Positions 27,786 through 43,942 are shown, counted from the stretch's first letter. The stretch is DNA of 64,000 nt from Xanthobacteraceae bacterium (GCA_049288525.1 JBAQHW010000144.1:776-64775); one strand, 5' to 3'. The notes: generated by a model from the sequence alone, not told the origin. Made by a program: numbers and translations.

Positions 27786-28958
27786 ATGCAGACATTCGTG
27801 CCCGCTGCCGCCGTCGAAAAGACCATCGTTCTGGGCGATCCTGTCCCCTGGTTCGGCGCTCCGCTCGTCGGCGATGGCGCCTTCAATCTCCAAGTCGCAG
27901 CCGGCCGCTGGATCGTGCTGAGCTTTCTCGGCTCGCCCGAAAATCCGCAGGTCGAGAGCGAGCTGACGCAGCTCCTCGCCGATACGCAAATCTTCGACGA
28001 GGACAAGGTCATATTCTGCGGCCTCTTTACCGCGCCGCCCGCCGATACGGCACCCTATATCGCGATGAGCGGCCCGGCGATTTCGTTTCTCGCCGATTAT
28101 GACGGCGCCATCAGCCGTCAGTTCGGCGCGGCGGCGATGCCGCGCACGATTGTGCTGGACCCGATGCTGCGCGCGGTCGCCGACATTGCGTGGGATCACG
28201 CCGACGGCCATGGCGCGACCGTAGGCGCGGTTTTGCAGGGCCTGCCCGCCGTCGATGATTCCGCCGGCGTGCCGCTCATGGCGCCGGCGCTGATCGTGCC
28301 GCGGGTCTTCGACTTCGAACTCTGCGACTTTCTCATCAATATCTATGACAAGCTTGGCGGCAAGGATTCGGGCTTCCTGTTCGACAATAACGGCGCCACA
28401 TCCACCGTGATCGACTACCGGGTCAAGCGGCGCAATGACCTGAGCATCCTGGTGCCTGAGGTGCGCGACCAGATCCGCGATCAGATCGTGCGCCGTCTCG
28501 TTCCGGCAATCGACCGGTTCTTTCAATTTTCGTCGACGCGGATGGATCGCTATATCGTCGCCTGCTACGACAGCGCCATCGGCGGGCATTTCTATCGCCA
28601 CCGCGACAACGTCAATATCGGCGCGCAGCATCGGCGCTTCGCCGTCACCGTCAATCTCAACAAGGACTATGACGGCTGCGATCTCGTGTTTCCCGAATTC
28701 GGCCGCCGCACCTATCGCGCGCCGGCGGGCGGCGCGATCGTATTCTCCTGCGGGGCGCTGCATCAGGTGACGCCGGTGACGCGCGGCACACGCTATGCCT
28801 TCCTCGCTTTTCTTTACGGCGAGGCTGATGCGGCGTTGCGTGAGAAAAACGACACAAAAATCGTGCAAAATGAATTCCGCTATGCCGGCACCAATTTTGG
28901 TTCCATGTCGGACCGACTGTTTCCGCAAGCCCCGATGCTCGAACAGCGCGCTGGCTAG
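27786..28958 (+). CDS. Fusion protein: Cys-less redoxin/AhpC-TSA-like N-terminal domain plus 2OG-Fe(II) oxygenase (prolyl-4-hydroxylase/PiuC-like) C-terminal domain
   Basis: The N-terminal ~170 aa have a redoxin-like pattern (WIVLSFLGSPENPQ...IVLDP) but no active-site Cys. The C-terminal part has the H-x-D...H facial triad context (FYRHRDN ... GGAIVFSCGALHQVTPVTRGTRYAF). Start set at ATG 27786. Confidence 0.7.
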   Translation: MQTFVPAAAVEKTIVLGDPVPWFGAPLVGDGAFNLQVAAGRWIVLSFLGSPENPQVESELTQLLADTQIFDEDKVIFCGLFTAPPADTAPYIAMSGPAISFLADYDGAISRQFGAAAMPRTIVLDPMLRAVADIAWDHADGHGATVGAVLQGLPAVDDSAGVPLMAPALIVPRVFDFELCDFLINIYDKLGGKDSGFLFDNNGATSTVIDYRVKRRNDLSILVPEVRDQIRDQIVRRLVPAIDRFFQFSSTRMDRYIVACYDSAIGGHFYRHRDNVNIGAQHRRFAVTVNLNKDYDGCDLVFPEFGRRTYRAPAGGAIVFSCGALHQVTPVTRGTRYAFLAFLYGEADAALREKNDTKIVQNEFRYAGTNFGSMSDRLFPQAPMLEQRAG

Positions 28959-29519
28959 CCTCGTCCGAAGCTCCTCAGAGCCATGGCTTCCTGGCCCGTC
29001 CACTAATATTCCTTGGCGACCAGAAGCGTTCAACTGGGACGCCCGGCGCGGTTCAGCGTGTAAATTTCGACGGCAAGACCGTATTTTGGTCCGCTCGTGC
29101 TCAACCGTTCACGCTCGAACTCCACGCATCATAGGTCCATCGGAACCGCTTCAGCCCCGGATTGGATTAATCGAGCAGCAATTCGAAAGCGCGACAGAAC
29201 GACGGGTCGGCAAAGCTTTTCATGATCGAAGCGTCCGTCAACTGAGAGTTTCCGTGCGGCCGATTCCCACACCGAACCCGCCTCAAACCTTGACAGAAAG
29301 CCGAGGTTGCCTCTATTCATACTGCAAGTGCTGAATTCGTTCAGCAAGGCGATGGAGTTCGCCTAAATTGCCCACAGGGCTGATGACTCCTTTCACCCTC
29401 GTTTGAAGGCGGAAGGAATTGTCGTTGAAATTTCCGATAGCGCTATCAAGCTGGACTGGCGCTGGTATGATTCTGCGCACTTGCCGCGGAAATCTTGCCT
29501 ATGTGCGGAGGTTCGCTTG

Positions 29520-30464
29520 ATGTTTCACGACATCATTTTGCAAATCTGCCAAGTGCTCGCCGTCTTGATGCTCTCGCCGCTGTTGCAAGGCGTCATCCTG
29601 CAGTTCGAGGAGCGAGTGCAGTTCGCGCAGGGCCCGGGCATTTTTCAGCCGTATCGCGACCTGTGGAAACTATTTCACAAGCAGATCGTGGTGCCGCAGA
29701 CCGCCTCCTGGATTTATTGGATCGCACCGTTCGTCGCCTTCACTGCGATGCTGACGGTGCCGATCCTGATCCCGGTCTTGACCGATTTTCCGCTGCCGCT
29801 GTCCGACATGGGCGACATTCTCGGCGGCGGACTGATCCTCACCCTCGGATCGTTCATGGTGGTGCTCGCCGGTCTCGACACCGGCAGCGCCTATGGCGGC
29901 ATCGGCTCAAGCCGCGCCGTGATGGTGGCGATTCTCGCCGAGCCGACGCTGATCCTGGTCTTTGTCGGCATTACGCTGCTGGCCAAGTCGATGTTACCGT
30001 TCGTTGTCAATCATCTCCTGGTCGGCAGTCCGGCGGTCTATTTTAGTCCCGCGCACCTCTTCCTGATCCTGGCCTTCTTCACCTTGCTCATCGTCGAGAC
30101 CGATCGGCTGCCGATCCATTCCAGCACGCACATCGAAGTCTACATGATCGAGGAAGGACGCATCCTCGAATATTCCGGCCCGTTGCTCGCCATCCTGCGC
30201 TGGGCCTCAATGATGAAGCAGTTCATCCTCTATACGATCTTTTGCAACGTGCTGCTCATTCCCTGGGGCCTGTCGCATCAAGGCAGCGCTGTCGGCGTCG
30301 TCGGCTCGATCGCTTCGCTGGCCGGCAAATTCCTCGTGGTCGCGATGGCTGTTGTCGTGGTCGAAACCGCGCAGTCGCGCCTGCGCTTCTATCGCTATCA
30401 GGAACTGCTGGCAGCATCTTTCGTCTTCGCCATTCTCGCCATTATCGGCACGCAATTGGTGTGA
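29520..30464 (+). CDS. HycD/HyfC/NuoH-like membrane subunit of a hydrogenase-like complex
   Basis: Aligns by eye with E. coli HycD along its length (QGPGIFQPYRDLWKLF; GLDTGSAYGGIGSSR; ETDRLP...EEGRILEYSG; SRLRF). Start set at ATG 29520. Confidence 0.85.
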   Translation: MFHDIILQICQVLAVLMLSPLLQGVILQFEERVQFAQGPGIFQPYRDLWKLFHKQIVVPQTASWIYWIAPFVAFTAMLTVPILIPVLTDFPLPLSDMGDILGGGLILTLGSFMVVLAGLDTGSAYGGIGSSRAVMVAILAEPTLILVFVGITLLAKSMLPFVVNHLLVGSPAVYFSPAHLFLILAFFTLLIVETDRLPIHSSTHIEVYMIEEGRILEYSGPLLAILRWASMMKQFILYTIFCNVLLIPWGLSHQGSAVGVVGSIASLAGKFLVVAMAVVVVETAQSRLRFYRYQELLAASFVFAILAIIGTQLV

Positions 30465-30466
30465 TC

Positions 30467-31147
30467 ATGCCGGTCGCGCAGTTCGATCCCCTCGCCGCCT
30501 CACTGTTCAGCTTCCTGGCGATTGCTAGCCTGCTGCTGGCCTTCGTCATGCTCGGCTCACGCTGGCTCAATAATTACCTCTACGCCTTTGCCGCGGAGTC
30601 GTGGATCATCGCAATGCTTTCCGCCATGATCGGATATTACGGCGGCTTCCCGGAGCTCTATCTGATCGCCGTGCTGACGGCTTTGTTCCGTGGTCTGCTG
30701 CTGCCGTATCTAATCTGGCGGATCATCAAACGTCTCGGCGTTGCCCGCGAAATCCATGAAATTCTCGAACCGAGCTCGACGCTGGTCGCCGGCGCTGCCA
30801 GCGTCATCTTTGCGCTGATCGTGTCCTATCACATCGGTCAATCCCTCGGCGTCACCGGCAATGTGGTCGTGCTGGCGCTGACCGTCATGCTGGCGATGAA
30901 GTTGATCGGCTTCCTGATGCTGGCCGCGCGGCATGAGGCGCTGAGCCAGATTCTCGGGCTCCTTGTCCTGGAGAACGGCATCTTTCTCGGCGCCCAGCTT
31001 CTGGTACCCGGCATGCCGACGCTGATCGAGATCGTCATCCTGTTCGATCTGCTGGTCGTCGTCGCCTGCTTCGGCGTTCTCGTCCGCTACCTGCTTGCTC
31101 ATGTCGGCAGCACGAGCAGCCTCGATCTCAACCGGCTGGTAGGCTGA
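30467..31147 (+). CDS. HyfE-like small membrane subunit
   Basis: 226 aa, about 7 TM. Its size and position match HyfE/HycP of Hyf-type operons. ATG 30467 is 2 nt after the upstream stop. Confidence 0.7.
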   Translation: MPVAQFDPLAASLFSFLAIASLLLAFVMLGSRWLNNYLYAFAAESWIIAMLSAMIGYYGGFPELYLIAVLTALFRGLLLPYLIWRIIKRLGVAREIHEILEPSSTLVAGAASVIFALIVSYHIGQSLGVTGNVVVLALTVMLAMKLIGFLMLAARHEALSQILGLLVLENGIFLGAQLLVPGMPTLIEIVILFDLLVVVACFGVLVRYLLAHVGSTSSLDLNRLVG

Positions 31148-31149
31148 CG

Positions 31150-32613
31150 ATGGCGGCCGCACTCCTTCTTATCGCGATGCTGGCGCCGGCAGTGACGGTC
31201 GCACTCTGTCTCGCCGTCCGCGCACCGCGGTTCGTCGAGGCCGCCAATCTGTGCTCCAGCATCGTGGTATTCGCCGCCGCGATCGCGCTCACGGTTTTCA
31301 GCGCGCGCGGACCTTATTTTTACCTCGGCGACTACGTCGTTCTCGACGTCACCGGCGCGTGGGTCATCCTCTGCACGGCCATCGTCTATCTGCTGGCTTC
31401 GATATATTCGATTGGTTACATGCGGCTGGTCGGCGAAGAGGACCGGCTGTGGCTGTTCTACGCGCTGTTTTCCGGCTTCACGTTCACCATCTTGCTGAGC
31501 GCAGTGATGAACAATGCCGGCCTGTATTGGATCGCCATCGAGCTGACGACGCTGGTCAGCACGTTTCTGGTCGGCTTCGAGCGGGCCGCAGAGAGCATCG
31601 AGGCGGCCTGGAAATACATCATTATCATTTCCGCCGGCATCAGTCTGGCGCTGCTCGGCACCATTCTGTTTTATTGGTGCGGCAGTTTCGTGCTTGGGCC
31701 GACCTATCAGATGACATGGGATGTGCTGCGCGCGGCCGCGCCAAAGATGAATCCTGCCTTGGCGGCCCTGTCGTTTCTTCTGATCCTGGTCGGCTACGGC
31801 ACCAAGGTCGGTTTGGCGCCGATGCACACCTGGCTGCCTGATGCCCATAGCGAGAGCCCGGCGCCGATTTCGGCAATGTTGTCCGGTGCGCTGCTCAACA
31901 GCGCCATGCTCGGCATCGCGCGCTATCTGCCGATCGCGGAAGCGGCGCAGAGCGAGCGCATCGCCCGCGCGAGCCTCGTTGCTTTCGGCATCGTCTCGCT
32001 CCTTGTCGGCGCGCTGTTCATCGTCCGGCAGAGCGGCATCAAGCGGCTGATGGCCTATTCCAGCGTCGAGCATATGGGCGTCGTGGCGCTCGGCTTCGGT
32101 TTCGGCGGACCGCTCGGCATCGCCGGCGCGCTCTACCACATGCTCAATCACTCGCTGAACAAATCGCTGATGTTCTTCGGCGCCGGCAACGTGATGCGCA
32201 GCTATGGATCGAAGGAGATTCGTGACATTCGCGACGTCTGGCGACGCTTTCCGGTCGCCGGCGCATTATGGCTTGCCGGCGCGGTCGGCATTACCGGCGC
32301 GCCGCCGTTTGCGTTGTTTCTCAGCGAACTCGTTATCCTGCGGGCCGGCTTCGAACGCGGCTACGCTTGGGCGGTGTATGCGATGGCCGTGCTGCTGATC
32401 GTGATTTTCATCGGCTTCCTCAATCACTTTCGCAATATGTATTTCGAAGCCGATGGAGCGGCCGATGCTGCGCCGCTGGCAATCAGCCGCTGGTGCGTCG
32501 CGCCGATGTGGCTCGCACTCGGGCCGCTTCTCGTCTTCGGCCTGTGGTGGCCGGACGCGCTGTGGGATCACTTTATGACCGCAGCGCGCACGCTGACGGG
32601 GGCCTCGCCGTGA
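31150..32613 (+). CDS. HyfF / NuoM-NuoN-like antiporter-type membrane subunit
   Basis: 487 aa with proton-conducting membrane transporter motifs (GLAPMHTWLPDAHSESPAPISAMLSG; YSSVEHMG). Confidence 0.85.
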   Translation: MAAALLLIAMLAPAVTVALCLAVRAPRFVEAANLCSSIVVFAAAIALTVFSARGPYFYLGDYVVLDVTGAWVILCTAIVYLLASIYSIGYMRLVGEEDRLWLFYALFSGFTFTILLSAVMNNAGLYWIAIELTTLVSTFLVGFERAAESIEAAWKYIIIISAGISLALLGTILFYWCGSFVLGPTYQMTWDVLRAAAPKMNPALAALSFLLILVGYGTKVGLAPMHTWLPDAHSESPAPISAMLSGALLNSAMLGIARYLPIAEAAQSERIARASLVAFGIVSLLVGALFIVRQSGIKRLMAYSSVEHMGVVALGFGFGGPLGIAGALYHMLNHSLNKSLMFFGAGNVMRSYGSKEIRDIRDVWRRFPVAGALWLAGAVGITGAPPFALFLSELVILRAGFERGYAWAVYAMAVLLIVIFIGFLNHFRNMYFEADGAADAAPLAISRWCVAPMWLALGPLLVFGLWWPDALWDHFMTAARTLTGASP

Positions 32614-34100
32614 ACGCCTTGCAGCCCCTCGCGCTGCGGCCGGGCGAACTGAAGGACGCCGCAACGCGCCTTCTTGCCTCCGGCGGCCGCATGCAAATGG
32701 CCTATGCCTGGTATCCGGAGCCGGATCGTATCGAGCTTCGCTATACCGCAAGCCCGGCCGATAACGCGCCATTTGCAATCTGGCGCTGCCAAGCCGACGA
32801 GCCGGTGCCGAGCCTTGCCGGGATTTCCCCTCTCTTGAGTTGGTACGAACGCGAAGTGACCGATCTGTTCGGCCTGCACTTCACCGATCACCCGCAACCT
32901 TTGCCGCTGGTTCTGCATGAAGGGGTGGACCGGAGCGTCCCGCCTTTCGCCCCGGATTATCCACCGGATCGGGCGCTTAAGCTGCAGACGACGCGGCGCT
33001 CGGTGCCCGAGCTTGCCGGCGCCGATGGGGACGTGCAGCTTTTGCCGTTCGGTCCGGTCCGCGCCGACGTCATGGAGTCCGGCGAGTTTCTGTTCTTTTA
33101 TGTCGGTGAAGCGATCCTGCATTATCAACCGCGGCTGTTCTTCAAGCATCGCGGCATGGAGAAGCGCTTCGAGGGCTTATTGCCCGAACGCGGCGTCGTG
33201 CTAGCCGAACGTGTGTCGGGCGTCGGCAGCGTCGCCCACGCGCTCGCTTACTGCCAAGCCATGGAAGCGGCCGCCGGTTGCGACGTTCCCGAGCGCGCCC
33301 GCGTGCTGCGGCTCGTCCTCGCCGAGATCGAGCGGCTTTATAACCATCTGCATTATTTCGGCCATCTCTGCAGCACGACGACGCTCAAAGTCGGCGAAGC
33401 GGAAGGCAAACTGCTCGAAGAGCAAGCCAAGCAGCTTAATACGCGGCTTACCGGCAGCCGCTTTCTGCGAAGTCTGCTTGCCATCGGCGGACTGCGGCGC
33501 GACCTTGCGCCAGAGGATTGGCTTGACGAGGCGCTCGACGGCTTGCATGCGCACTTTGCCCGCTATGCGCGGCACATGGAGAACACGGCAAGCCATCTCG
33601 ATCGCCTGATCACGACCGGACTGCTCGATCGCCGTCTGGCGTTCGATCAGGGCGCGACCGGGCCGGTCGAGCGCGCTTCGGGCGTCGACCGCGATTTGCG
33701 GCGCGATCATCCTTATGCGGCCTATGCCGCTTTGCCGCCAAAGATCGCGGTGCGCGAAGCCGGCGACGCCCATGCCCGCGCGCAAGTGCGCATGGCGGAA
33801 GTCGAAGCCAGTATCGCGCTCATCAGGCGCGCACTGCAAGCGCTGCCCGATGGGCCGATCCGCGGCAAATGCACGATCACGCCGAATAGCGAAGGCCTCG
33901 GCTGGGCGGAATCGCCGCGGGGCACCTTGTTCTATGCGGTGCATATCGGCGGCGACGGTAAGCTCGCCCGCGTCAAGATCAAATCGCCGTCGTTTTCCAA
34001 TTGGCGGGTGTTTCCATTCACCGTGCATGACAGCAACATGATGGATTACGCGATCAACGAGGCCAGTTTCGGCCTCACCATCGCGGGATGCGATCGTTAG
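32610..34100 (+). CDS. NuoC+NuoD / HycE-like large subunit lacking the NiFe cysteine ligands
   Basis: The GTG 32610 start overlaps the upstream stop (GTGA). N-terminal NuoC-like domain (LSWYEREVTDLFGL). The NuoD/HycE-like domain (FGPVRADVMESGEF...HRGMEKRFE) reads ERVSGVGSVAH where hydrogenases have RxCGxCxxxH. Its C-terminus is GLTIAGCDR where hydrogenases have DPCxxCxxR. Confidence 0.85.
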   Translation: MNALQPLALRPGELKDAATRLLASGGRMQMAYAWYPEPDRIELRYTASPADNAPFAIWRCQADEPVPSLAGISPLLSWYEREVTDLFGLHFTDHPQPLPLVLHEGVDRSVPPFAPDYPPDRALKLQTTRRSVPELAGADGDVQLLPFGPVRADVMESGEFLFFYVGEAILHYQPRLFFKHRGMEKRFEGLLPERGVVLAERVSGVGSVAHALAYCQAMEAAAGCDVPERARVLRLVLAEIERLYNHLHYFGHLCSTTTLKVGEAEGKLLEEQAKQLNTRLTGSRFLRSLLAIGGLRRDLAPEDWLDEALDGLHAHFARYARHMENTASHLDRLITTGLLDRRLAFDQGATGPVERASGVDRDLRRDHPYAAYAALPPKIAVREAGDAHARAQVRMAEVEASIALIRRALQALPDGPIRGKCTITPNSEGLGWAESPRGTLFYAVHIGGDGKLARVKIKSPSFSNWRVFPFTVHDSNMMDYAINEASFGLTIAGCDR

Positions 34101-34109
34101 GAGCCGCGC

Positions 34110-34913
34110 ATGCCGCAATGGACATTGATCGGCCTCCTCACCGGCAAGCAGACGGCGCCTTGGCCGTTCGCCGAAGGCGACGACGGCCAGCACGGCTTTC
34201 TCGGCATGCCGCGCTACAAGCCGGAACTGTGCAGCGATGAATGCCGCGCCTGCGCCGACATTTGCCCGACCAAGGCGATCGCGCTCAAGGCGAGCGTAAA
34301 CGGCGGCGGCAAGCTCGACGTCGATTATGGCCGCTGCGTCGTCTGCCAGCTTTGCACCGAAGCCTGTCCGACTGGCGCAATGAGCCCTTCGGCGGATTGG
34401 GCTTTTGGCGTGCGCGCACGCTCCGATCTCGTCTGGAGCGAAAACGTGAATCCTGCACCCGTCGCAGCCGCCGCGGCGCGGCGGCCGTTCCGGCGCAGCC
34501 TGCATGTCCGCCATGTCGATGCCGGCTCCTGCAACGGTTGCGAATCCGAGCTGCAGGCGCTGAACAATCCGTTTTACAATCTGCATCGCCTCGGCATTTT
34601 CTTCACCGCCTCGCCGCGTTTCGCCGATTTGTTGCTGGTGACTGGACCAGTAACCAACGCGATGGCGGAGCCGCTGCTCGCCACTTACGAAGCAATGGCG
34701 GAACCGCGCTGGGTGGTTGCGGTCGGCACCTGCGCGGTCTCCGGCGGCATCGCCGAAGGCGGTTATGCATCGGGTTATGGCCTCGACGGCGTTCTCCCCG
34801 TCGATGTCTATCTGCCCGGCTGTCCGCCCAATCCGGCGGCAATCATAGAAGCGCTGCTGATGTTTCTCGATCGCGCACCGCAGCGCGTCAAAGGAGGCCG
34901 CCTTGGCGAATGA
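34110..34913 (+). CDS. Fused 2x[4Fe-4S] ferredoxin (HycF/NuoI-like) plus NuoB/HycG-like small subunit
   Basis: The N-terminal part has CSDECRACADICP and CVVCQLCTEACP. The C-terminal part has NuoB motifs (GSCNGCE, LLLVTGPVT, VAVGTCAVSGG, LPGCPPNP). Confidence 0.85.
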   Translation: MPQWTLIGLLTGKQTAPWPFAEGDDGQHGFLGMPRYKPELCSDECRACADICPTKAIALKASVNGGGKLDVDYGRCVVCQLCTEACPTGAMSPSADWAFGVRARSDLVWSENVNPAPVAAAAARRPFRRSLHVRHVDAGSCNGCESELQALNNPFYNLHRLGIFFTASPRFADLLLVTGPVTNAMAEPLLATYEAMAEPRWVVAVGTCAVSGGIAEGGYASGYGLDGVLPVDVYLPGCPPNPAAIIEALLMFLDRAPQRVKGGRLGE

Positions 34914-36888
34914 CCTCCTGACCACCGCGGTGATCGCCTGGCTTGCTGCGGCGCTGATTGCGCTCAGCGGACGCTGTCTTGTGCTGTCTCGCGGGCTTTT
35001 GTTTGTTGGCGCGCTCGTGGCGATTGTTGCAGCGATTCTTGCGTTGCCCGATGGGACGGCCGCGGTCGCGCTACCGACGCGGATCGCCGGCAGCGCCGTT
35101 GCCTTCCGCATCGCGCCGGAAGCGGCTTGGCTCTTCGGCTTCGGTCTCGTTCCAGCGGCGCTCGCGGCCGCGCTGTCGTCGCCTGTGCGGCAGGGGCAAG
35201 CCGGCTGGCTGTTCGGCGCCGCCATGAGCCTTCTCGGCGCGCTCGGCGTATTCGGCGTCAGCGATGGCGCCGGCTTTCTCATCGCCTGGGAAATCATGAG
35301 CTTCGGCGGCGCGATCATGATTTTGAGCGAAAAATTGTCGCCCGCCGGCGAACCGGTCCTGTTCATGCTCGGCCTGCTCGAAGCCGGCGCGATCGCTCTT
35401 TTGCTTGCTGTCGTGGTCCTTGCCGCCGCCGGGCATTCCTTCGCTTTCGCAAACTTTGCCGGCGCGTCTGCACATTTGGCGGCCCCGATTGCATCGTTCG
35501 TCGCCGTGCTGCTGGTGATCGGCTTCGGCGCCAAGCTTGGTCTTTTGCCGTTCTACGAATGGTTTCCGTCGGCTTATGGCGCCGGCAGCGGCGCGTCGGG
35601 CGCGCTGCTTTCGGGCGTCGTTCTCAATGCCGCATTCTATGGCTTGAGCCGCGGGCTGCTTGATTGGGCGCCCGACCAGCACGCGGCCGCGACATCGGCC
35701 ATCGGGATTTTTGTCGTGACTGTCGCGGTGCTGAGCGCGATTCTCACTGCGCTTTATGCTTTCCAGCAGGAGGATTGGCGGTCGCTCCTGAGCTTTTCCT
35801 CGGCGGAAAACGCCGGCATCGCCGTTGCAATGCTCGGTGCCGCCTTGATCTTCCGCGGTCACGCGATGCCCGAACTCGCAAGCCTCGCCTGGACGGTGGC
35901 GCTGCTGCACCTCGCGGCGCATGCGCTGGCGAAGGGCGGCTTGTTTCTCACCGCCGACGCAGTCTATCGCGCGACCGGCAGCTACAGCATCCTGCATACC
36001 GATCTGTTGCGCCGCAGCTCCTGGCTGTTCGGGCTCGGTGCGCTGTTTGCCGCGATGAGCCTTGCCGCCATGCCGCCGCAAGCCGGCTTCGTCAGCGAGT
36101 GGTACATGTTCGAAACCGTATTCCAGGGTTTCCGCCTCGATTCGCTGACGAGCCGTCTGGTCATGGCGCTTGCCGGCGCCGGCCTTGCTCTGACTGTCGC
36201 CATTGGCTTTGCGACTTACGTCAAGGTCTTCGGCATCGGGCTCCTCGGCCGCACCGCGCAAAAATTCCCGCCGGCGCGCCCCGACTATGGCTTAGCGATC
36301 GGCCTGCTTGGCCTCGGCGTCCTCGCCCTTGCCGTCGGCATGCCGTGGTGGCTCGACGCGCTGCGGAACGCGGTGTCGGCACAGTTCGGTACGCAGGCCA
36401 TAAGCGCCATGCGCGACGGACCGATCCTGGTTCCGCTGACCGCGAAATTCGCCTTCATCTCACCGACGCTTCTGGTCGTGGTCATGCCGCTGTTGGCGAT
36501 CCTGCCGATCGCGCTGGTCCTCGCCAACCGACGCTTTGCCGTACGTCGCGTGCCGGTCTGGTACGGCGGCTTTGATCAGGATCCGGCGCGCGCTTCAACC
36601 ACGGCGCTCACCTTCTCCAACGCGCTGCGCACCTTCTACAGCTTCATCTACCGGCCGACCCTGGAAACCACGCGGGATTCCGGCGCAGCCCCGCATTATT
36701 TCGTCAAGCGGCTCGTGTTCTCGCACGATGTGGCACCGGTGTTCGGACCCTATCTGTTCGCGCCGCTGACGCGCGCGACCTATGCGCTGGCCGACCGCTT
36801 CAAGGCGCTGCAATCGGGCAACCTGAACTTGTACCTGGCCCTGATAGGCCTGATGCTGGTCGCCATCCTCGCTCTGACCTTGTATTGA
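34903..36888 (+). CDS. HyfB / NuoL-like antiporter-type membrane subunit
   Basis: 661 aa polytopic protein of HyfB size. TTG start at 34903 with AAGGAGG 5 nt upstream. It overlaps the upstream gene by 11 nt. Confidence 0.8.
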   Translation: MANDLLTTAVIAWLAAALIALSGRCLVLSRGLLFVGALVAIVAAILALPDGTAAVALPTRIAGSAVAFRIAPEAAWLFGFGLVPAALAAALSSPVRQGQAGWLFGAAMSLLGALGVFGVSDGAGFLIAWEIMSFGGAIMILSEKLSPAGEPVLFMLGLLEAGAIALLLAVVVLAAAGHSFAFANFAGASAHLAAPIASFVAVLLVIGFGAKLGLLPFYEWFPSAYGAGSGASGALLSGVVLNAAFYGLSRGLLDWAPDQHAAATSAIGIFVVTVAVLSAILTALYAFQQEDWRSLLSFSSAENAGIAVAMLGAALIFRGHAMPELASLAWTVALLHLAAHALAKGGLFLTADAVYRATGSYSILHTDLLRRSSWLFGLGALFAAMSLAAMPPQAGFVSEWYMFETVFQGFRLDSLTSRLVMALAGAGLALTVAIGFATYVKVFGIGLLGRTAQKFPPARPDYGLAIGLLGLGVLALAVGMPWWLDALRNAVSAQFGTQAISAMRDGPILVPLTAKFAFISPTLLVVVMPLLAILPIALVLANRRFAVRRVPVWYGGFDQDPARASTTALTFSNALRTFYSFIYRPTLETTRDSGAAPHYFVKRLVFSHDVAPVFGPYLFAPLTRATYALADRFKALQSGNLNLYLALIGLMLVAILALTLY

Positions 36889-37028: not shown

Positions 37029-37427
37029 ATGGGAATGTATCTTTTGGTCGGGCTCGGCGGCGCTATCGGCTCGATTGGACGCTATTTCATGTCCGGAGTG
37101 ATGGCGCGGCTGATCGGCGAAACGTTCCCGTGGGGTACGCTCTTCGTCAATGTCACCGGCTCGTTCATTATTGGATTTTTCGCGGCACTGACCGGACCGG
37201 ACGGGCGCTTCTATGTCGGTTCGAGCGGACGCCAATTCGTCATGACCGGCATATGCGGCGGCTATACGACGTTTTCCTCGTTCAGCCTGCAAACGCTCAA
37301 TCTCATGAATGATGGAGAGTGGTTTCGAGCCGGCGCGAATATGGGCATCTCTCTGGCACTCTGCCTGCTCGCGGTCTGGGCTGGATTCATCGCAGCGAAT
37401 ATGATCAACACCATCAAATGGACGTGA
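37029..37427 (+). CDS. crcB: Fluoride channel CrcB/FluC
   Basis: 132 aa, 4 TM, with the family motifs GGAIGSIGRY and CGGYTTFSSF. Confidence 0.9.
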   Translation: MGMYLLVGLGGAIGSIGRYFMSGVMARLIGETFPWGTLFVNVTGSFIIGFFAALTGPDGRFYVGSSGRQFVMTGICGGYTTFSSFSLQTLNLMNDGEWFRAGANMGISLALCLLAVWAGFIAANMINTIKWT

Positions 37428-37429
37428 GC

Positions 37430-37768
37430 ATGCAGTTGCCGCGCGACGCCGTCTTGCTGCGGATATTTTTTGGCGAAGACGACAAATTCGAGCGTCTGCC
37501 GCTGCACGAGGCTATCGTGTTGAAGGCGCGCGAAATGCACCTTGCCGGAGCGACGGTGTTGCGCGGCCACGTTGGCTACGGCCATTCCAGCCGCATCCAC
37601 ACCACGAAAATCCTGCGCCTTTCCCAAGACCTGCCCGTGGTCGTCGAGATTGTCGATAGCCAGGACAAGATCGACGCCTTCCTGCCTGTGCTCGACGGCA
37701 TGATGACGAGCGGGCTGGTCACCATCGAAAGGGTTCAGGTGCTTCAATACGGCACCACAAAGCCGTAA
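37430..37768 (+). CDS. DUF190 (PII-like) protein commonly linked to crcB
   Basis: LLRIFFGEDDKFERLPLHEAIVLKAREMHLAGATVLRGHVGYG is the DUF190 pattern. The ATG is 2 nt after the crcB stop. Confidence 0.75.
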   Translation: MQLPRDAVLLRIFFGEDDKFERLPLHEAIVLKAREMHLAGATVLRGHVGYGHSSRIHTTKILRLSQDLPVVVEIVDSQDKIDAFLPVLDGMMTSGLVTIERVQVLQYGTTKP

Positions 37769-39793: not shown

Positions 39794-40831
39794 TTAAGGC
39801 CGCGGCTGCGACGGCGTAAGGCGATAATGGCTCACGCCCCATTCCTCGCCGCCGGCGTGACCGAACAATCCCATCGTCGCCAGAAAGAACAGCCGCCAGC
39901 GGCGGCGCCAGAGCGCGCCGTCGCGGCCGTAGACGCGCTTAAGGACCGCATTCACTTCATCGGCATGGTCGTCAAACTTTTTCAGCCAATCTGCGGCCGT
40001 GCGTCGGTAATGCTCGCCGTTCCATCGCCATTCCGCGTCGACGGTGAAGCAATCCGGAAATTGCCGGATCAGTCCGTGGCTCGGCATTATGCCGCCGGTG
40101 AAATAATGCTGCGCGATCCAGTCTTCCTTGTCTTCTGCGCGGAAGCGATACGACGCACGCGCATTGCTGAAGACGTGGATGAACATGCGCCCGTCGGCTT
40201 CGAGACTATCGCGCATCCGGGAAAGCAGCGGTCGCCAGTTCGACATGTGCTCGAACATTTCGACCGACACCACGCGATCGAAGCGGCCACTCGGCATAAA
40301 CACATTCATATCGGCAGTAACGACTTCAAGATTAGTCAGGCCCTGAGCTTCGGCGACGCCCGTGATAAAGGCACGCTGCGAATGCGAATTCGACACCGAC
40401 ACGATCTTGGCGGCGCGATAGCGCCGCGCCATCCACAGCGATAGCGAACCCCAGCCGCAGCCGAGTTCGAGAATGCGCTGACCGTCGGCAAGGCCGGCAT
40501 GCGCGGCACTGACGGCGAGCGCGCGCTCCTCGGCTTCGATCAGCGATTCGATACCGTCATCGTAGAGACAGCACGAATATTTGCGCTGGGGCCCAAGCAC
40601 GAGCGCAAAGAAATTTTCGGGGATCTCATAATGCTGCGTATTAGCTGCATCCGTATTAATCGCGATCGGATAGTCCGCCATCCCCGCGGCGAATATGCCG
40701 TCGACATTTTGCGGCGCGACCCGCAGCCGACGCCGGGTCCGCCCGACGAGCCAATCGATCGCCGGCCGCGTTATCGCGTCGGGCCACGGGACGCCCTCGC
40801 CGATGCCGATCATGGATTGCAGAAGCGTCAT
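39794..40831 (-). CDS. Cyclopropane-fatty-acyl-phospholipid-synthase-like SAM-dependent methyltransferase
   Basis: HYEIPENFFALVLGPQRKYSCCLY and the SAM motif ILELGCGWGSL. The start ATG 40831 overlaps the upstream stop (ATGA). The track ORF start at 41131 was rejected. Confidence 0.88.
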   Translation of the reverse strand: MTLLQSMIGIGEGVPWPDAITRPAIDWLVGRTRRRLRVAPQNVDGIFAAGMADYPIAINTDAANTQHYEIPENFFALVLGPQRKYSCCLYDDGIESLIEAEERALAVSAAHAGLADGQRILELGCGWGSLSLWMARRYRAAKIVSVSNSHSQRAFITGVAEAQGLTNLEVVTADMNVFMPSGRFDRVVSVEMFEHMSNWRPLLSRMRDSLEADGRMFIHVFSNARASYRFRAEDKEDWIAQHYFTGGIMPSHGLIRQFPDCFTVDAEWRWNGEHYRRTAADWLKKFDDHADEVNAVLKRVYGRDGALWRRRWRLFFLATMGLFGHAGGEEWGVSHYRLTPSQPRP

Positions 40832-41670
40832 TTGCGGTCTCCAAACCCGCTCCACCAGGCCAGGCGCTGCGGCACCGGAAAAAATGCATTGGTGCGCGCC
40901 TGATAGGCACGAAACGCGCCGACCCGCCGTTCCAGCATATGCGCTTCGAGCGGCGGGATGCCGGAGACATGCACCAGCAGCCAGTACATGCAGAGCGGCC
41001 CTGCCAGCGCGATAAATCCCCACGGATAGCCGCCACCGAAAGCGATCGCGAACAGCGGATAGGCGAGCCAGCCGAACCATTCGAAGAAGTAATTCGGGTG
41101 CCGCGACCATGACCACAGTCCGGCGTCGCAAATCCGATCGCGGTTCTTTGGGTCGGAGCGAAAGTGCCGCAGCTGGAAATCGGCGGCGGCTTCGCCGCCG
41201 ATGCCGACCATCAGGACGACGACGCCGAGGAAATCTTGTGCACCAAGGCCCGGCGATGGATTAAACGCAGCGAGTGTCATTGCCAGCGCCAGCGGTATGC
41301 TGACCAATGCCTGTTTCTGCAACAGCCAGAACATTTGTCGCGACGCATTGTCCCCCCAGTCGCGAATGAGCTTGGCGTAGCGCGGATCGTCGATAATCCC
41401 GACCGTGCGCAGCGCGATATGAGCGCCAAGCCGCAGCGACCAGATCGCGATCAGCCAAGCCACCAGTGCCTGACGCTCCGTTATGCCGCCGAACAACAGC
41501 CATGGCGTCAACGCACCGCCACAGCCGACAACGCCGAGACCGAAAGTCCAGATCGTATCGACCCATCCGGAGTTTCGCGTGCCGCGCCAAACCAGCCAGG
41601 CTCCGGACATGATTGCCGAAAGCGCCGCGCTGACGGCAACAACGACGACTGCGAATTGTTGCGCCGTCAT
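40828..41670 (-). CDS. DUF1295 (steroid-5-alpha-reductase/ICMT-like) membrane protein
   Basis: The C-terminal motif GLWSWSRHPNYFFEWFGW is characteristic. About 6 TM. Confidence 0.8.
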   Translation of the reverse strand: MTAQQFAVVVVAVSAALSAIMSGAWLVWRGTRNSGWVDTIWTFGLGVVGCGGALTPWLLFGGITERQALVAWLIAIWSLRLGAHIALRTVGIIDDPRYAKLIRDWGDNASRQMFWLLQKQALVSIPLALAMTLAAFNPSPGLGAQDFLGVVVLMVGIGGEAAADFQLRHFRSDPKNRDRICDAGLWSWSRHPNYFFEWFGWLAYPLFAIAFGGGYPWGFIALAGPLCMYWLLVHVSGIPPLEAHMLERRVGAFRAYQARTNAFFPVPQRLAWWSGFGDRK

Positions 41671-42608
41671 GGCGTCACAGCCGCGGGCTGCGCCCGACCG
41701 CGGAGCGTTCCGGCCATGAAGCGGTCGGTATCCCGCAACGCCGGCGCGAGGAAGCGGAGCGGGCCGGCGAACGACCCAATGATGGTGAGGTGGCCGACGC
41801 GCGGATAGGTGGCCACATCGGCTTCGTCACCGGACGCGCGCAGGCGCGCCGCAAGGCGCATGGTATTGCCCGAGCCAACCACGTTGTCGTTCGTGCCCGT
41901 CATCAGGAGTGCCGGCGGCGCTCCGGGCGAGACATAAGAGATCGGCTGCGTCGTTGGCCGATTGGCGCCGCCGAATATCGCCTGCAGCATCGGATCGCGC
42001 AGCGGCAGGAAATCATACGGCCCGGAAACCCCGATCAGCCCGGCGAGATCGCGGTCCGGCACGAGGCCGACCTCCTTGAGCCAGCGGGGGTCGAGCGCAA
42101 GCATCGCCGCGATATAGGCGCCGGCCGAATGCCCCATGACAAAAAGCGCGGCGGAGTTGCCGCCGTAGCGCGCGGCGTTGTCACGAGTCCAGCGCATCGC
42201 GTGCGCGCCGTCCTCAAGAAAAGCGGGATAGCGAACCTCGGGGTAAAGCCGATAGTCCGGGACGACGGTCAGATAACCGCGCTGTGCCAGCGCCGCGCCG
42301 AGAAACGTGTAGAGCGCCTTGTCGCCGGTTTGCCACGAGCCGCCGTAAAAGAACACGACAACCGGCGCATCAGTGGCGCCAGCAGGCCGATAGAGGTCGA
42401 GCGTTCGCCGGGGTCCGTCACCGTAAGCAACCGAGCGCGTAATTTCGACGCCGGACGTGGAAACAAAGAAGTTCAAGACCGAGGCAGGAGAGCAGCCGGC
42501 AAGGAGCAAGCTCGCCAGCACGCCGGCGGCCCACGGCGAGCCATGCCGGCCGCCGCACCGTTTGGCGCTCGACCCGGTACCGGCCCGATACTCGCAAGCG
42601 CGCCCCAT
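41667..42608 (-). CDS. Alpha/beta-hydrolase (esterase/lipase) lipoprotein
   Basis: Lipobox LLLAGCS, oxyanion FFYGGSW and nucleophile elbow GHSAGA. It is a paralog of the gene at 53427..54257. Confidence 0.85.
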   Translation of the reverse strand: MGRACEYRAGTGSSAKRCGGRHGSPWAAGVLASLLLAGCSPASVLNFFVSTSGVEITRSVAYGDGPRRTLDLYRPAGATDAPVVVFFYGGSWQTGDKALYTFLGAALAQRGYLTVVPDYRLYPEVRYPAFLEDGAHAMRWTRDNAARYGGNSAALFVMGHSAGAYIAAMLALDPRWLKEVGLVPDRDLAGLIGVSGPYDFLPLRDPMLQAIFGGANRPTTQPISYVSPGAPPALLMTGTNDNVVGSGNTMRLAARLRASGDEADVATYPRVGHLTIIGSFAGPLRFLAPALRDTDRFMAGTLRGRAQPAAVTP

Positions 42609-42617
42609 CGCGGCCGC

Positions 42618-43262
42618 TCAGAGACGGACGAAAGGCTGTAGCAGCCGGCCGACCCAGCTCTGCAGCTCGATATTGCCCTGCAACGCCACCAGGCAAACGC
42701 AAGGCACGCCATCCTCGACGACCGGATTATGCTCGACCAGTTCGTCGGCCTCGTCGAAATCGCCGGCGCCGAAGCGGCCAAAATCGTGTCGGAAGGCACC
42801 CTCGAAAACGCAGGTCCATTCCGTTCCGCTATGCCGGTGACGCGGCAAACGCGTCCCCGCCGCTGCCTTCAACATGAAAACGCGGACGCCATCGTCCGAG
42901 GCGACGTCGACCGAACGCCACTGCACGTTGCAGCCGATCCAACGCCATGAACCCAATGTGTAGGGCGCCAGAGATGCCGGTAACGCACCGGCCTGTGCGC
43001 GCTGCGGGCGGGCACCTTGGCCGGCTTCCGACACTTGCGCGGACACTCGCGCTATGGCGCGCTCCAGCGCGCCGGTGGACATCTCCGCGGGTACAGCCGT
43101 CTCAAGCTGGACGCCGCCGACATTCTCGAATGACGACATCGCCTCCCGGCAATGCGGGCACAGCGACAGGTGCGCGGCAACCACCACCGCACGCGCCTCA
43201 TCAAGCGTGCCGGAGGCGAGCGCCGCCAATGTCAGATCGCTTGGATGATGCGTGATGGTCAT
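42618..43262 (-). CDS. chrR: ChrR-family anti-sigma-E factor (zinc anti-sigma domain plus cupin)
   Basis: HLSLCPHCR zinc motif, a C-terminal cupin (RHRHSGTEWTCVFEGAFRHDFGRFGAGDF) and a QPFVRL end, closely like the Rhodobacter ChrR pattern. Overlaps the sigma gene stop (ATGA-type, 43259-43262). Confidence 0.9.
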   Translation of the reverse strand: MTITHHPSDLTLAALASGTLDEARAVVVAAHLSLCPHCREAMSSFENVGGVQLETAVPAEMSTGALERAIARVSAQVSEAGQGARPQRAQAGALPASLAPYTLGSWRWIGCNVQWRSVDVASDDGVRVFMLKAAAGTRLPRHRHSGTEWTCVFEGAFRHDFGRFGAGDFDEADELVEHNPVVEDGVPCVCLVALQGNIELQSWVGRLLQPFVRL

Positions 43263-43828
43263 GTCGGCTCACCCAGAAGATTGTGCAAACGGGTCATCGC
43301 CAGACGCAGCCGCGATTTGACTGTACCCAGCGGCAGATCGAGAAGCTTGGCGATATCACCGTGGGCGCGGCCTTCGAAGAAGGAAAGCTGAACCACACGG
43401 ACTTGTTCCTCCGGCAGTTCGCGAAGTGCGTCGCGCAGGCGCTGATCGCGCTCCGCGACGTCGAGCGGAGCGTCGGGCCGCTCGGGCGCCTCGGTTTCGA
43501 TGGCCTCATAAAGCGCAAACAGCTTTGCCCGCTTGTCGCGGCGCAACCGGTCCACCCCCAGATTGCGGGCGATCGTGTAAATCCAGGCGGCTGGGCTGGC
43601 GCGCGCCGAATCGAATTGCCCGGCCTTTCGCCACACCATCAGCATCGTATCCTGCGCGATGTCCTCGGCCGCCTCAGCCGCAGCGCCGCGCCGAACCAGC
43701 ATGGCTTTGATGCGGCCGGCATAACATTCGAACAGCGAGGCGAACGCGTCCCGGTCCCCTTCGGTCGCAATCGCGCTGATCCATCGCGCCGGATCGGAAC
43801 CCGAAGCGCTTTCGCCTTTATCGTCCAT
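43259..43828 (-). CDS. rpoE: ECF sigma factor, sigma-E of the ChrR-linked group
   Basis: Region 2 (AEDIAQDTMLMVWRKAGQFD) and region 4 (EQVRVVQLSFFEGRAHGDIAKLLDLPLGTVKSRL). Start set at ATG 43828 (MDDKGES). The track start at 43996 would swallow the promoter. Confidence 0.9.
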   Translation of the reverse strand: MDDKGESASGSDPARWISAIATEGDRDAFASLFECYAGRIKAMLVRRGAAAEAAEDIAQDTMLMVWRKAGQFDSARASPAAWIYTIARNLGVDRLRRDKRAKLFALYEAIETEAPERPDAPLDVAERDQRLRDALRELPEEQVRVVQLSFFEGRAHGDIAKLLDLPLGTVKSRLRLAMTRLHNLLGEPT

Positions 43829-43942
43829 ACGCGCTCCGTGACGGACGCCATCCTGCCGGAACCAAAGCGGCCCGTGGCCGCCCGGTAACGGCCAGGGCGG
43901 CGTCGGCCATTGCCTCGCTATTTCGAGTTGCATGCCCGGGGA

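Follow-up and report, generated by a model that had tools for sequence, protein, structure and literature searches.

A probable Ehr-type membrane complex encoded behind a fluoride riboswitch, with a large-subunit pocket of neither the NiFe-hydrogenase nor the complex I type

The DNA examined here is a stretch of 64,000 nucleotides from a Xanthobacteraceae bacterium (GCA_049288525.1 JBAQHW010000144.1:776-64775), which in its full length is referred to as the window. It contains, on the plus strand, an operon of six genes preceded by a fluoride riboswitch aptamer, and one of these genes (32610..34100) codes for a large subunit in which a NuoC-like and a NuoD/HycE-like part are fused. Based upon the results described below, this gene very probably specifies a subunit of an energy-converting hydrogenase-related (Ehr) complex in a fluoride-riboswitch operon. 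The Ehr complexes, which are widespread relatives of complex I and the energy-converting hydrogenases, are close to the group 4 hydrogenases and lack the CxxC NiFe motifs, and their function is not established (PMC10284858; PMC6349859; PMC7894505). The loss of the NiFe cysteines in Ehr has been published and the absence of these ligands is not in itself new; what is new is an Ehr-type operon behind a fluoride riboswitch, which joins two separate literatures. No paper joining Ehr, fluoride and a riboswitch was found in the literature searched, Baker et al. (2012) not being among it.

The first gene of the operon (29520..30464) codes for a NuoH/HycD/HyfC-like membrane anchor (Pfam NADHdh, 1.4e-31). 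It is followed by genes for a HyfE-like small membrane subunit (30467..31147; NCBIfam 'hydrogenase 4 membrane subunit', 9.6e-14, below cut-off) and a HyfF/NuoN-like antiporter-like subunit (31150..32613; Pfam Proton_antipo_M, 5e-54), whose stop codon is overlapped by the GTG start of the large-subunit gene (GTGA). Downstream of the large subunit are genes for a fusion of a HycF-like 2x[4Fe-4S] ferredoxin with a HycG/NuoB-like small subunit (34110..34913; Pfam Fer4_7 and Oxidored_q6) and for a HyfB/NuoL-like antiporter-like subunit (34903..36888; NCBIfam hydrogenase 4 subunit B, 2e-88, below cut-off). The large subunit is accordingly the predicted NuoCD/HycE-type component of a six-subunit membrane complex.

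The large-subunit gene is a single gene with a product of 496 amino acids (aa), identical to a protein of a Xanthobacteraceae metagenome-assembled genome (MAG). Its Pfam matches are Complex1_30kDa (NuoC), Complex1_49kDa (NuoD) and NiFeSe_Hases, the last match covering the N-terminal portion of the family of NiFe-hydrogenase large subunits. No NCBIfam model reached its cut-off on this protein, the NuoD models TIGR01962 and NF004739 giving 170 bits (cut-off 459) and 187 bits (cut-off 360), respectively. In HMMER comparisons its best PDB match was HycE of the E. coli formate hydrogenlyase (7z0s_E, 4e-58), followed by Aquifex NuoCD (7q5y), Nqo4, MbhL and E. coli NuoCD, with MbsL lower. An AlphaFold2 model based upon an alignment of 55 diverse homologues had a pLDDT of 93.9, and in Foldseek comparisons it matched HycE with a TM-score of 0.94 and E. 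coli NuoCD with one of 0.89. In databases, the protein is named 'formate hydrogenlyase subunit 5' or 'Ni,Fe-hydrogenase III large subunit'.

The registers of the pocket residues were obtained from HMMER alignments to HycE, Nqo4 and MbhL and from a MAFFT alignment with E. coli HycE, HyfG and NuoCD, and the two approaches agreed. An earlier note, made from the sequence alone, had held that this pocket is neither of the NiFe-hydrogenase nor of the complex I Tyr/His type, and the alignments bear this out, as the four Cys and the Tyr/His are all replaced. The former N-terminal NiFe motif reads ERVSGVGSVAH (33207..33239, aa 200-210), with Ser and Gly for the two Cys as had been described; HycE RVCGICGFAH aligns to RVSGVGSVAH, placing Ser203 and Gly206 at the ligand positions. 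The former C-terminal motif is GLTIAGCDR followed by the stop codon (34071..34097, aa 488-496). Here HycE LDPCYSCTDR aligns to FGLTIAGCDR, and the 'IDPC' of MbhL falls on 'FGLT', so that Thr490 and Gly493 replace the two Cys and the one Cys present is off-register, again in agreement with the note. The beta1-beta2 loop reads GPVRAD (33051..33068, aa 148-153) in place of the GPVHAG of hydrogenases, another of its observations, the His of GPxHAG being replaced by Arg151 and the Gly by Asp153; this loop is followed by Glu156, which aligns with the Glu of the HycE hydrogenase loop DEPGHF. At the positions of the complex I quinone site, Gly204 corresponds to the Tyr (Nqo4 Y87; E. coli RIEYLGG), Met155 to His38 (GPQHPSTHG) and Ser255 to Asp139 (Thermus numbering). 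The quinone Tyr is thus absent, as had been claimed, although the place assigned to it was not correct: in complex I it follows the first Cys position by one residue and does not coincide with it. The protein stops with ...CDR exactly where NuoCD does, which agrees with the NuoD-like terminus that had been proposed, and it lacks the 32-residue extension that HycE and HyfG of E. coli have after the DR. The motif AYCQ (aa 213-216) is present at 33246..33257, the note having placed it at 33249-33260, 3 nt too far downstream. Alternative registers restoring Cys, Tyr or His are ruled out by the agreement between the HMMER alignments to PDB sequences and the MAFFT alignment, and no shift against HycE, MbhL or Nqo4 puts a Cys on a NiFe ligand position or restores the Tyr/His pair.

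The conservation of these residues was examined in 120 close homologues (73-100% identity) and in a set of 80 orthologous loci from GTDB species genomes (59-84% identity), collected by a scan seeded with 11 sequences. Ser203, Gly493, His210 and Glu156 were invariant in both sets, and Arg151, Asp153, Thr490 and Cys494 nearly so. Within the close clade the counts were 79/81 for Arg151 and for Asp153, 81/81 for Glu156 and for His210, 79/80 for Cys494 and 77/81 for Cys215. Because the substitutions are invariant or nearly invariant in so many sequences, they are not a sequencing accident and, as judged from these alignments, not decay.

In a search of 1.8 billion cluster representatives, 115 near-full-length relatives (430 aa or more) with 29-61% identity were detected, of which 24 have all four NiFe Cys and about 85 are Cys-less. 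A recurring pattern in the latter is ER[IV]SGxxSxAH ... SF[GN]LSxAGxD[LR], and Glu156 was invariant in 55 diverse Cys-less sequences. A rough neighbor-joining (NJ) tree was constructed from 111 sequences, consisting of 107 cluster representatives, the window protein and E. coli HycE, HyfG and NuoCD. In this tree at least two Cys-less radiations were observed. The window protein lies inside a large Cys-less 'GPVR' superclade, while the second radiation, a 'GPxHAGxIEPGHF' group, adjoins the four-Cys sequences.

The aptamer of the fluoride riboswitch (crcB motif, RF01734) lies in the leader of the operon at 29339..29399, on the same strand, 120 nt upstream of the first gene and 3.3 kb upstream of the large-subunit gene. 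It scores 46.6 bits with Rfam (gathering score 34, E 1.4e-9) and 65.4 bits with a covariance model built from five aptamers. In the minimum free energy fold, the 3' strand of the pseudoknot can alternatively pair with 29410-29425, and this alternative pairing may represent the expression platform. Simple scans of the leader found no canonical intrinsic terminator or sigma-70 promoter.

The association of this aptamer with the operon is highly conserved. A same-strand aptamer was present at 65 of the 67 orthologous loci with enough upstream DNA, the other two having weak matches in the same place, and its median distance of 3298 nt before the large-subunit gene corresponds to the 5' end of the operon. 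Among 126 related aptamers, 98.7% of cells were paired and compensatory changes were seen in six of the seven pairs. By taxon name, the hosts belong to the Alpha-, Beta- and Gammaproteobacteria and the Acidobacteria, with one Vulcanimicrobiota MAG (four phyla in all), and are mostly aerobic soil Proteobacteria and Acidobacteria. Four of the genomes with this operon are not labelled as MAGs, namely those of Mesorhizobium montanum MSK 1335 (L024), Rhodopila globiformis DSM 161 (L041), Paraburkholderia sp. B3 (L078) and Dyella jejuensis JP1 (L080). Many of the host taxa are typical of acidic soils and peat, where the entry of hydrogen fluoride (HF) is strongest.

The link to fluoride extends well beyond the close clade. 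Riboswitches above the gathering score were also detected upstream of operons of homologues with 61, 53, 47, 41 and about 35% identity. In a metagenome scan seeded with clades of the GPVRSG type, which provided 36 loci with enough upstream DNA, 23 had an aptamer match at the expected place, and Rfam confirmed 11 of the 12 such loci that were tested (39-51 bits). The possibility that riboswitch control is confined to a 'GPVR.D' subclade was rejected, as the SSSG and EASG clades of the GPVRSG type also carry the riboswitch. Two aptamer variants were noted in the course of this work. One, which is the form carried by the aptamers of the GPVRSG-type loci and was found at L118 (2721-2792), L133, L121, L140, L161, L166 and other loci, has about 11 additional nt inserted after P1, ahead of the linker, and such aptamers score 47-51 bits with Rfam versus 24-30 bits with the close-clade model. 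In the other (L093, 2098-2170), the pseudoknot strands are GGUG/CACC versus GGAG/CUCC, a compensatory change that covariance models do not score.

The fluoride-regulated clades differ from one another in the large-subunit pocket. Written as the four residues at the former Cys positions followed by the protein's ending, they comprise SGTG with CDR, SSSG with CDA, SSSG with ADC, EASG with VAG or AAR, TTSG with ADR, and SSSD with CDR. Common to them are Glu156, usually Arg151 and His210, and small or polar residues at the former ligand positions.

The partner subunits are also well conserved, the genes of the complex being kept in 68-80 of the 80 loci and the HyfE-like one in 73. The NuoH-like protein is the most conserved of them (74-90% identity). 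It keeps R132, E141, D47, K50, E217, K270, R287 and R289, which are common to E. coli NuoH, HycD and HyfC. The loop between its transmembrane helices (TM) 5 and 6 has been remodelled to PIHSSTHIEVYMIEE, the conserved PFD..AEQE loop of NuoH being replaced; this loop (aa 196-217) reads PIHSSTHIEVYMIEEGRILEYSG versus PFDLAEAEQELQEGPLSEYSG in HycD, is longer by an insertion of two residues and contains His200 and His204, both of which are invariant. In other Cys-less clades it takes different, Ser/Thr-rich forms. This His/Ser/Thr-rich loop was considered as a marker of the fluoride-regulated clades and rejected, as every Cys-less clade sampled has a similar loop, even one that is riboswitch-negative. 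The HyfF-like subunit keeps Glu131 (TM5), Lys219 (TM7) and Glu393 (TM12) as in E. coli HyfF, and the HyfB-like subunit keeps the corresponding Glu130, Lys211 and Glu399 as in E. coli HyfB.

In the fusion of HycF- and HycG-like domains, all 12 Cys of three predicted [4Fe-4S] clusters are kept in 71-73 of 73 orthologues. The proximal-cluster motif of its small-subunit part is of the hydrogenase CxxC type (SCNGCE, GTCAVSGG and PGCPP), was found in 73/73 and aligns with HycG without gaps. The first ferredoxin motif of this fusion (34110-34913, aa 41-52) is Cx3Cx2Cx3CP, which exceeds the usual CxxCxxCxxxCP by one residue, and this length is kept in orthologues. A search of the 64-kb window, and of the DNA up to 10 kb away in the 80 loci, found no homologues of Hyp (HypA-E), HycI, HycB or NuoEFG; matches to HycB and HyfA were merely to the ferredoxin domain of the fusion. 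Two loci have unusual forms of the operon. At L097 (6001-7992), a reduced complex has a large subunit without the NuoC domain (459 aa) and a small subunit without the ferredoxin domain (196 aa), and it is still behind a 54-bit fluoride riboswitch. At L098 (2942-9273), which is of the EASG type, the genes look fragmented, which may be due to frameshifts or to errors in the assembly. Upstream of them lies an aptamer of sub-threshold score (27.9 bits), and downstream are Usp, MFS and enolase genes.

Directly after the operon on the same strand, and 140 nt from its end, is a gene for the fluoride channel CrcB (Fluc) (37029..37427; Pfam CRCB, 4e-29), which is followed by one for DUF190 (COG1993), the usual partner of CrcB (37430..37768, plus strand; Pfam DUF190, 3e-39). 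Simple scans of the gap between the operon and crcB found no riboswitch and no promoter-like or terminator-like site. Because both genes follow the operon directly on its strand and have no riboswitch of their own, they are probably co-transcribed with it. Of 68 orthologous loci, 26 have crcB in the same orientation no more than 1.5 kb downstream, and both crcB and DUF190 are present in 23; DUF190 was found in 37 of 80. The recurrent neighbours are CrcB, DUF190, enolase, MutS-domain-V proteins, histidine phosphatase, metallophosphoesterase, dynamin-like GTPases and MFS transporters, and most of these are known members of the fluoride regulon (PMC2864571; PMC11139923). At least two riboswitches were found in 28 sources, namely 27 of the 80 loci and, if it is counted, the window.

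Some of the orthologous loci (L008-L087) have the form of 'fluoride islands', with up to five riboswitches within 20 kb, e.g. L038 (4734, 6691, 15064, 17751 and 18234), L032, L039 and L056. The genes under the control of these riboswitches, which are either divergent or downstream, code for MutS-domain-V proteins, dynamin-like GTPases, enolase, a histidine phosphatase, a metallophosphoesterase, MFS transporters and several small proteins without a Pfam match. In Paraburkholderia sp. B3 (L078, 3363-5994), two tandem copies of enolase lie just upstream of the riboswitch-controlled operon, with more riboswitch matches at 2056-2270.

When these features are compared with known systems, the closest agreement is with Ehr. 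The large subunit is related to group 4 and has no NiFe Cys motifs, as in Ehr (PMC10284858; PMC6349859), and the operon consists of genes for NuoB-, NuoC/D-, NuoH-, NuoI- and NuoL/M/N-like subunits. The same kind of membrane complex, made up of NuoB/C/D/H/I/L-like subunits and with a Cys-less large subunit, is seen in Ehr of, for example, Geobacter sulfurreducens (EhrL/EhrS, GSU0739-45). However, published discussions of Ehr weigh formate dehydrogenase partners and are silent on fluoride, whereas the operon described here has no formate dehydrogenase or NuoEF partner and stands behind a fluoride riboswitch. The assignment to Ehr is based upon the features tested, the named references in the NJ tree being E. 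coli HycE, HyfG and NuoCD.

Of the features by which group 4 hydrogenases are recognized, the small-subunit CxxC...GxCxxxG...GCPP is present, and the N- and C-terminal Cys motifs, nearby maturation genes and the C-terminal tail are absent. The E. coli Hyc/Hyf systems (group 4a; HycE, 7z0s) have the same subunit types, the NuoC-NuoD fusion and the CxxC proximal motif, and they provide the best sequence and fold match. The operon differs from them in lacking the NiFe Cys, the C-terminal extension, HycI and HycB/FdhF, in having HycF and HycG fused, and in an identity of only 29%. With complex I (NuoCD/Nqo4) and NDH-1 the complex shares the fold (TM-score 0.89), a Cys-less large subunit ending in DR, and intact antiporter-like modules, but it lacks the quinone Tyr/His/Asp triad, the CC of NuoB, the PFD..AEQE loop of NuoH, NuoA/J/K as such and the NADH module. 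Neither Tyr87/His38/Asp139 nor a score above the NuoD cut-off was found.

The sulfane-sulfur reductase MBS (Mbx) of Pyrococcus (6u8y) shows that a hydrogenase-derived complex can lose its NiFe chemistry and still couple the oxidation of ferredoxin to ion translocation (PMC7684303). MbsL keeps two of the four Cys, and a shortened motif in MbsJ results in a 3-Cys proximal cluster; the two remaining pocket Cys are dispensable, the proximal cluster being the catalyst (PMC7684303). The operon described here keeps none of the four Cys and has a full-length CxxC, and the published criteria for MBS, applied to its large and small subunits, set it apart from this group.

The operon is also a putative member of the fluoride-riboswitch regulon, as its RF01734 element scores above the gathering threshold and lies in the 5' leader on the same strand. 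Weinberg (2010) and, reportedly, Baker (2012) noted 'formate hydrogen lyase' genes in this regulon. The position of crcB-motif RNAs upstream of genes bearing the annotation formate hydrogen lyase has been on record since 2010 (PMC2864571), and a 2024 review reads the fluoride-linked formate hydrogenlyase (FHL) as a true FHL that marks a shift to fermentation (PMC11139923). The loci described here resemble those of this literature in the crcB-motif RNA of the 5' leader and in such neighbours as crcB, enolase, mutS-like genes and phosphatases (PMC2864571; PMC11139923). However, while this literature accepts the FHL name as it stands, the predicted products of the operons seen here cannot be hydrogenases. 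That the complex is a true FHL or [NiFe] hydrogenase, as indicated by database names, by HycE as the best PDB match and by 'formate hydrogen lyase' among riboswitch-linked genes (PMC2864571; PMC11139923), is thus scarcely credible, given the absence of the four NiFe Cys, of the C-terminal extension and of hyp, hycI, hycB or fdhF-type partners nearby.

The entry of HF acidifies the cytoplasm and drains the proton-motive force, and HF entry followed by the exit of F- via CrcB amounts to a net import of protons that drains the membrane potential (PMC11139923). Because of this, an additional primary pump would be useful to a cell exposed to fluoride. The best explanation of our results, which on the whole we consider somewhat more probable than its negation, is that the operon encodes an ion-translocating complex which depends on iron-sulfur clusters, is induced by fluoride and protects the pH and membrane potential of the cell. 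As the placement of the genes suggests, rising cytoplasmic fluoride would cause the complex to be made via the riboswitch. By analogy with Ech/Mbh (and NDH-1), a low-potential donor, probably ferredoxin, would dock on the HycF-like domain, and its electrons would run down the three predicted clusters to some acceptor in or beside the remodelled pocket, for which an unusually bound quinone is the simplest candidate. A coupled movement of charge through the NuoH-like and antiporter-like subunits would then expel H+ (or Na+), and this expulsion would counteract the acid load and the drop in membrane potential that arise when HF enters and F- leaves via CrcB. The pump role of the complex is put forward tentatively, as we give it slightly less than an even chance. 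Because the small or polar residues at the former NiFe positions differ among the fluoride-regulated clades, they more likely shape a cavity or a proton path than bind metal, and the conserved Glu156 would fit a proton path.

Several observations weigh against this explanation. The riboswitch was lacking at all five of the 'AATG' loci, at the P0133 locus (L089), where only 279 nt of upstream DNA were available, and at the P0144 locus (L099), which belongs to the second Cys-less radiation. The pocket residues vary among the fluoride-regulated clades, so that no common catalytic site can be named, and no gene for an electron donor or acceptor is linked to the operon, so that the redox reaction is one which we wholly infer. 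Additionally, control by a riboswitch indicates when the complex is made and not what it does.

The last-mentioned lack of donor or acceptor genes, together with the variation of the former active-site residues, is also what would be expected if the complex worked without redox chemistry, as an Mrp-like secondary cation/proton antiporter for pH homeostasis under fluoride, with the peripheral arm serving as a structural or regulatory cap and the pocket having no substrate. Na+/H+ antiporters are the second most common genes linked to fluoride riboswitches (PMC11139923), and the L097 variant dispenses with the ferredoxin and NuoC domains. However, the retention of all 12 cluster Cys in 71-73 of 73 orthologues and the strong purifying selection on the pocket motifs within each clade are difficult to explain in this manner, and Mrp itself needs no such arm; we regard an antiporter of this kind as unlikely.

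A further reading concerns the acceptor, and it is compatible with an ion-translocating complex of the type favoured above, for which it would supply the acceptor's identity. It holds that the complex is a non-canonical ferredoxin:quinone oxidoreductase of the complex I/NDH-1 type, which binds quinone without the usual Tyr/His. The DR end without a tail, as in NuoD, the fold match to NuoCD and the mostly aerobic hosts, as judged by taxon name, all accord with it. The quinone-site residues are nevertheless replaced (Gly204, Met155 and Ser255 for Tyr87, His38 and Asp139), the PFD..AEQE loop of NuoH is replaced as well, the NuoD models score far under their cut-offs, and the small subunit has the hydrogenase-type CxxC rather than the CC of complex I (PMC7684303). 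This reading is therefore quite unlikely in its specific form.

The complex could also handle fluoride directly, if a cavity lined by Ser, Thr, His and Arg, where the large, small and NuoH-like subunits meet, bound F- or HF and redox energy or the proton-motive force expelled it. Ser, Thr, Arg, His and Glu of the large subunit, together with the His/Ser/Thr-rich TM5-6 loop of the NuoH-like subunit, would form the site, and the drive would come from electron flow through the three FeS clusters or from the proton-motive force through the antiporter modules. As an analogy, NDH-1/CupA drives the hydration of CO2. Riboswitch control that holds across phyla, the probable co-transcription of crcB and DUF190, and the richness of the cavity lining in hydroxyl groups, His and Arg are consistent with this proposal, which, if true, would represent the first complex-I-type machine acting on an inorganic anion. 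However, the residues lining the cavity vary from one fluoride-regulated clade to another, a riboswitch-less clade (L099) has Ser/Thr-rich NuoH loops as well, CrcB already exports F- passively, and there is no precedent for such an activity; it is improbable that the complex functions in this way.

The earlier note had suggested a novel ligand set, a metal site formed by Cys494, Cys215 and nearby His residues. Their conservation within the close clade, as given above for both Cys and for His210, and a Cys at the same place in the SSSG clade ending '...AGCDA' are in its favour. Cys494 is, however, restricted to some of the fluoride-regulated clades: elsewhere among Cys-less, fluoride-regulated sequences its place is taken by Tyr, Ala, Val or Asn or is missing, with Tyr in the riboswitch-positive L007 operon and Ala in L093, and it is absent from the EASG, TTSG and AATG clades. 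Cys215, in the motif 'A[YF]CQ', is as frequent in the four-Cys relatives as in the Cys-less ones. Based upon this cross-clade conservation, the two Cys were rejected as a general ligand pair, and because Cys494 is present only in some of these clades and Cys215 is not specific for Cys-less proteins, a common new metal site is very improbable.

The main implication of this work concerns Ehr. A large Cys-less superclade sits behind fluoride riboswitches and within fluoride-response gene islands, and hence a large part of a family of unknown function gains a candidate inducing condition, fluoride, and a testable phenotype. One of the commonest riboswitch-linked 'enzymes', which is annotated as formate hydrogenlyase and has been read as a fermentation switch, is predicted to be unable to make hydrogen, at least in the operons seen here, and more likely serves membrane energetics or pH control. 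The annotations 'formate hydrogenlyase subunit 5' and 'Ni,Fe-hydrogenase III large subunit' in soil metagenomes over-count hydrogenases.

Some other features of the window were also noted. Just upstream of the riboswitch, a gene on the plus strand (27786..28958) codes, based upon its domain content, for a fusion of an AhpC/TSA-like protein and a 2-oxoglutarate-Fe(II) oxygenase; it was considered as a partner of the operon and rejected, since it occurs in only 4 of the 80 loci and is probably unrelated. Antisense open reading frames of up to 777 aa overlie the operon (33201-35534 on the minus strand of the window, and others) and recur as 'families' when high-GC loci are clustered; these are composition artefacts and not genes. 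Lastly, on the minus strand at 39794-43830 there are genes for a cyclopropane-fatty-acid-synthase-like methyltransferase, DUF1295, an alpha/beta hydrolase, Cupin_7 (a ChrR-like anti-sigma factor) and an ECF (extracytoplasmic function) sigma factor, followed by an amine-oxidase-like gene, a cluster which resembles a singlet-oxygen/ECF stress regulon.

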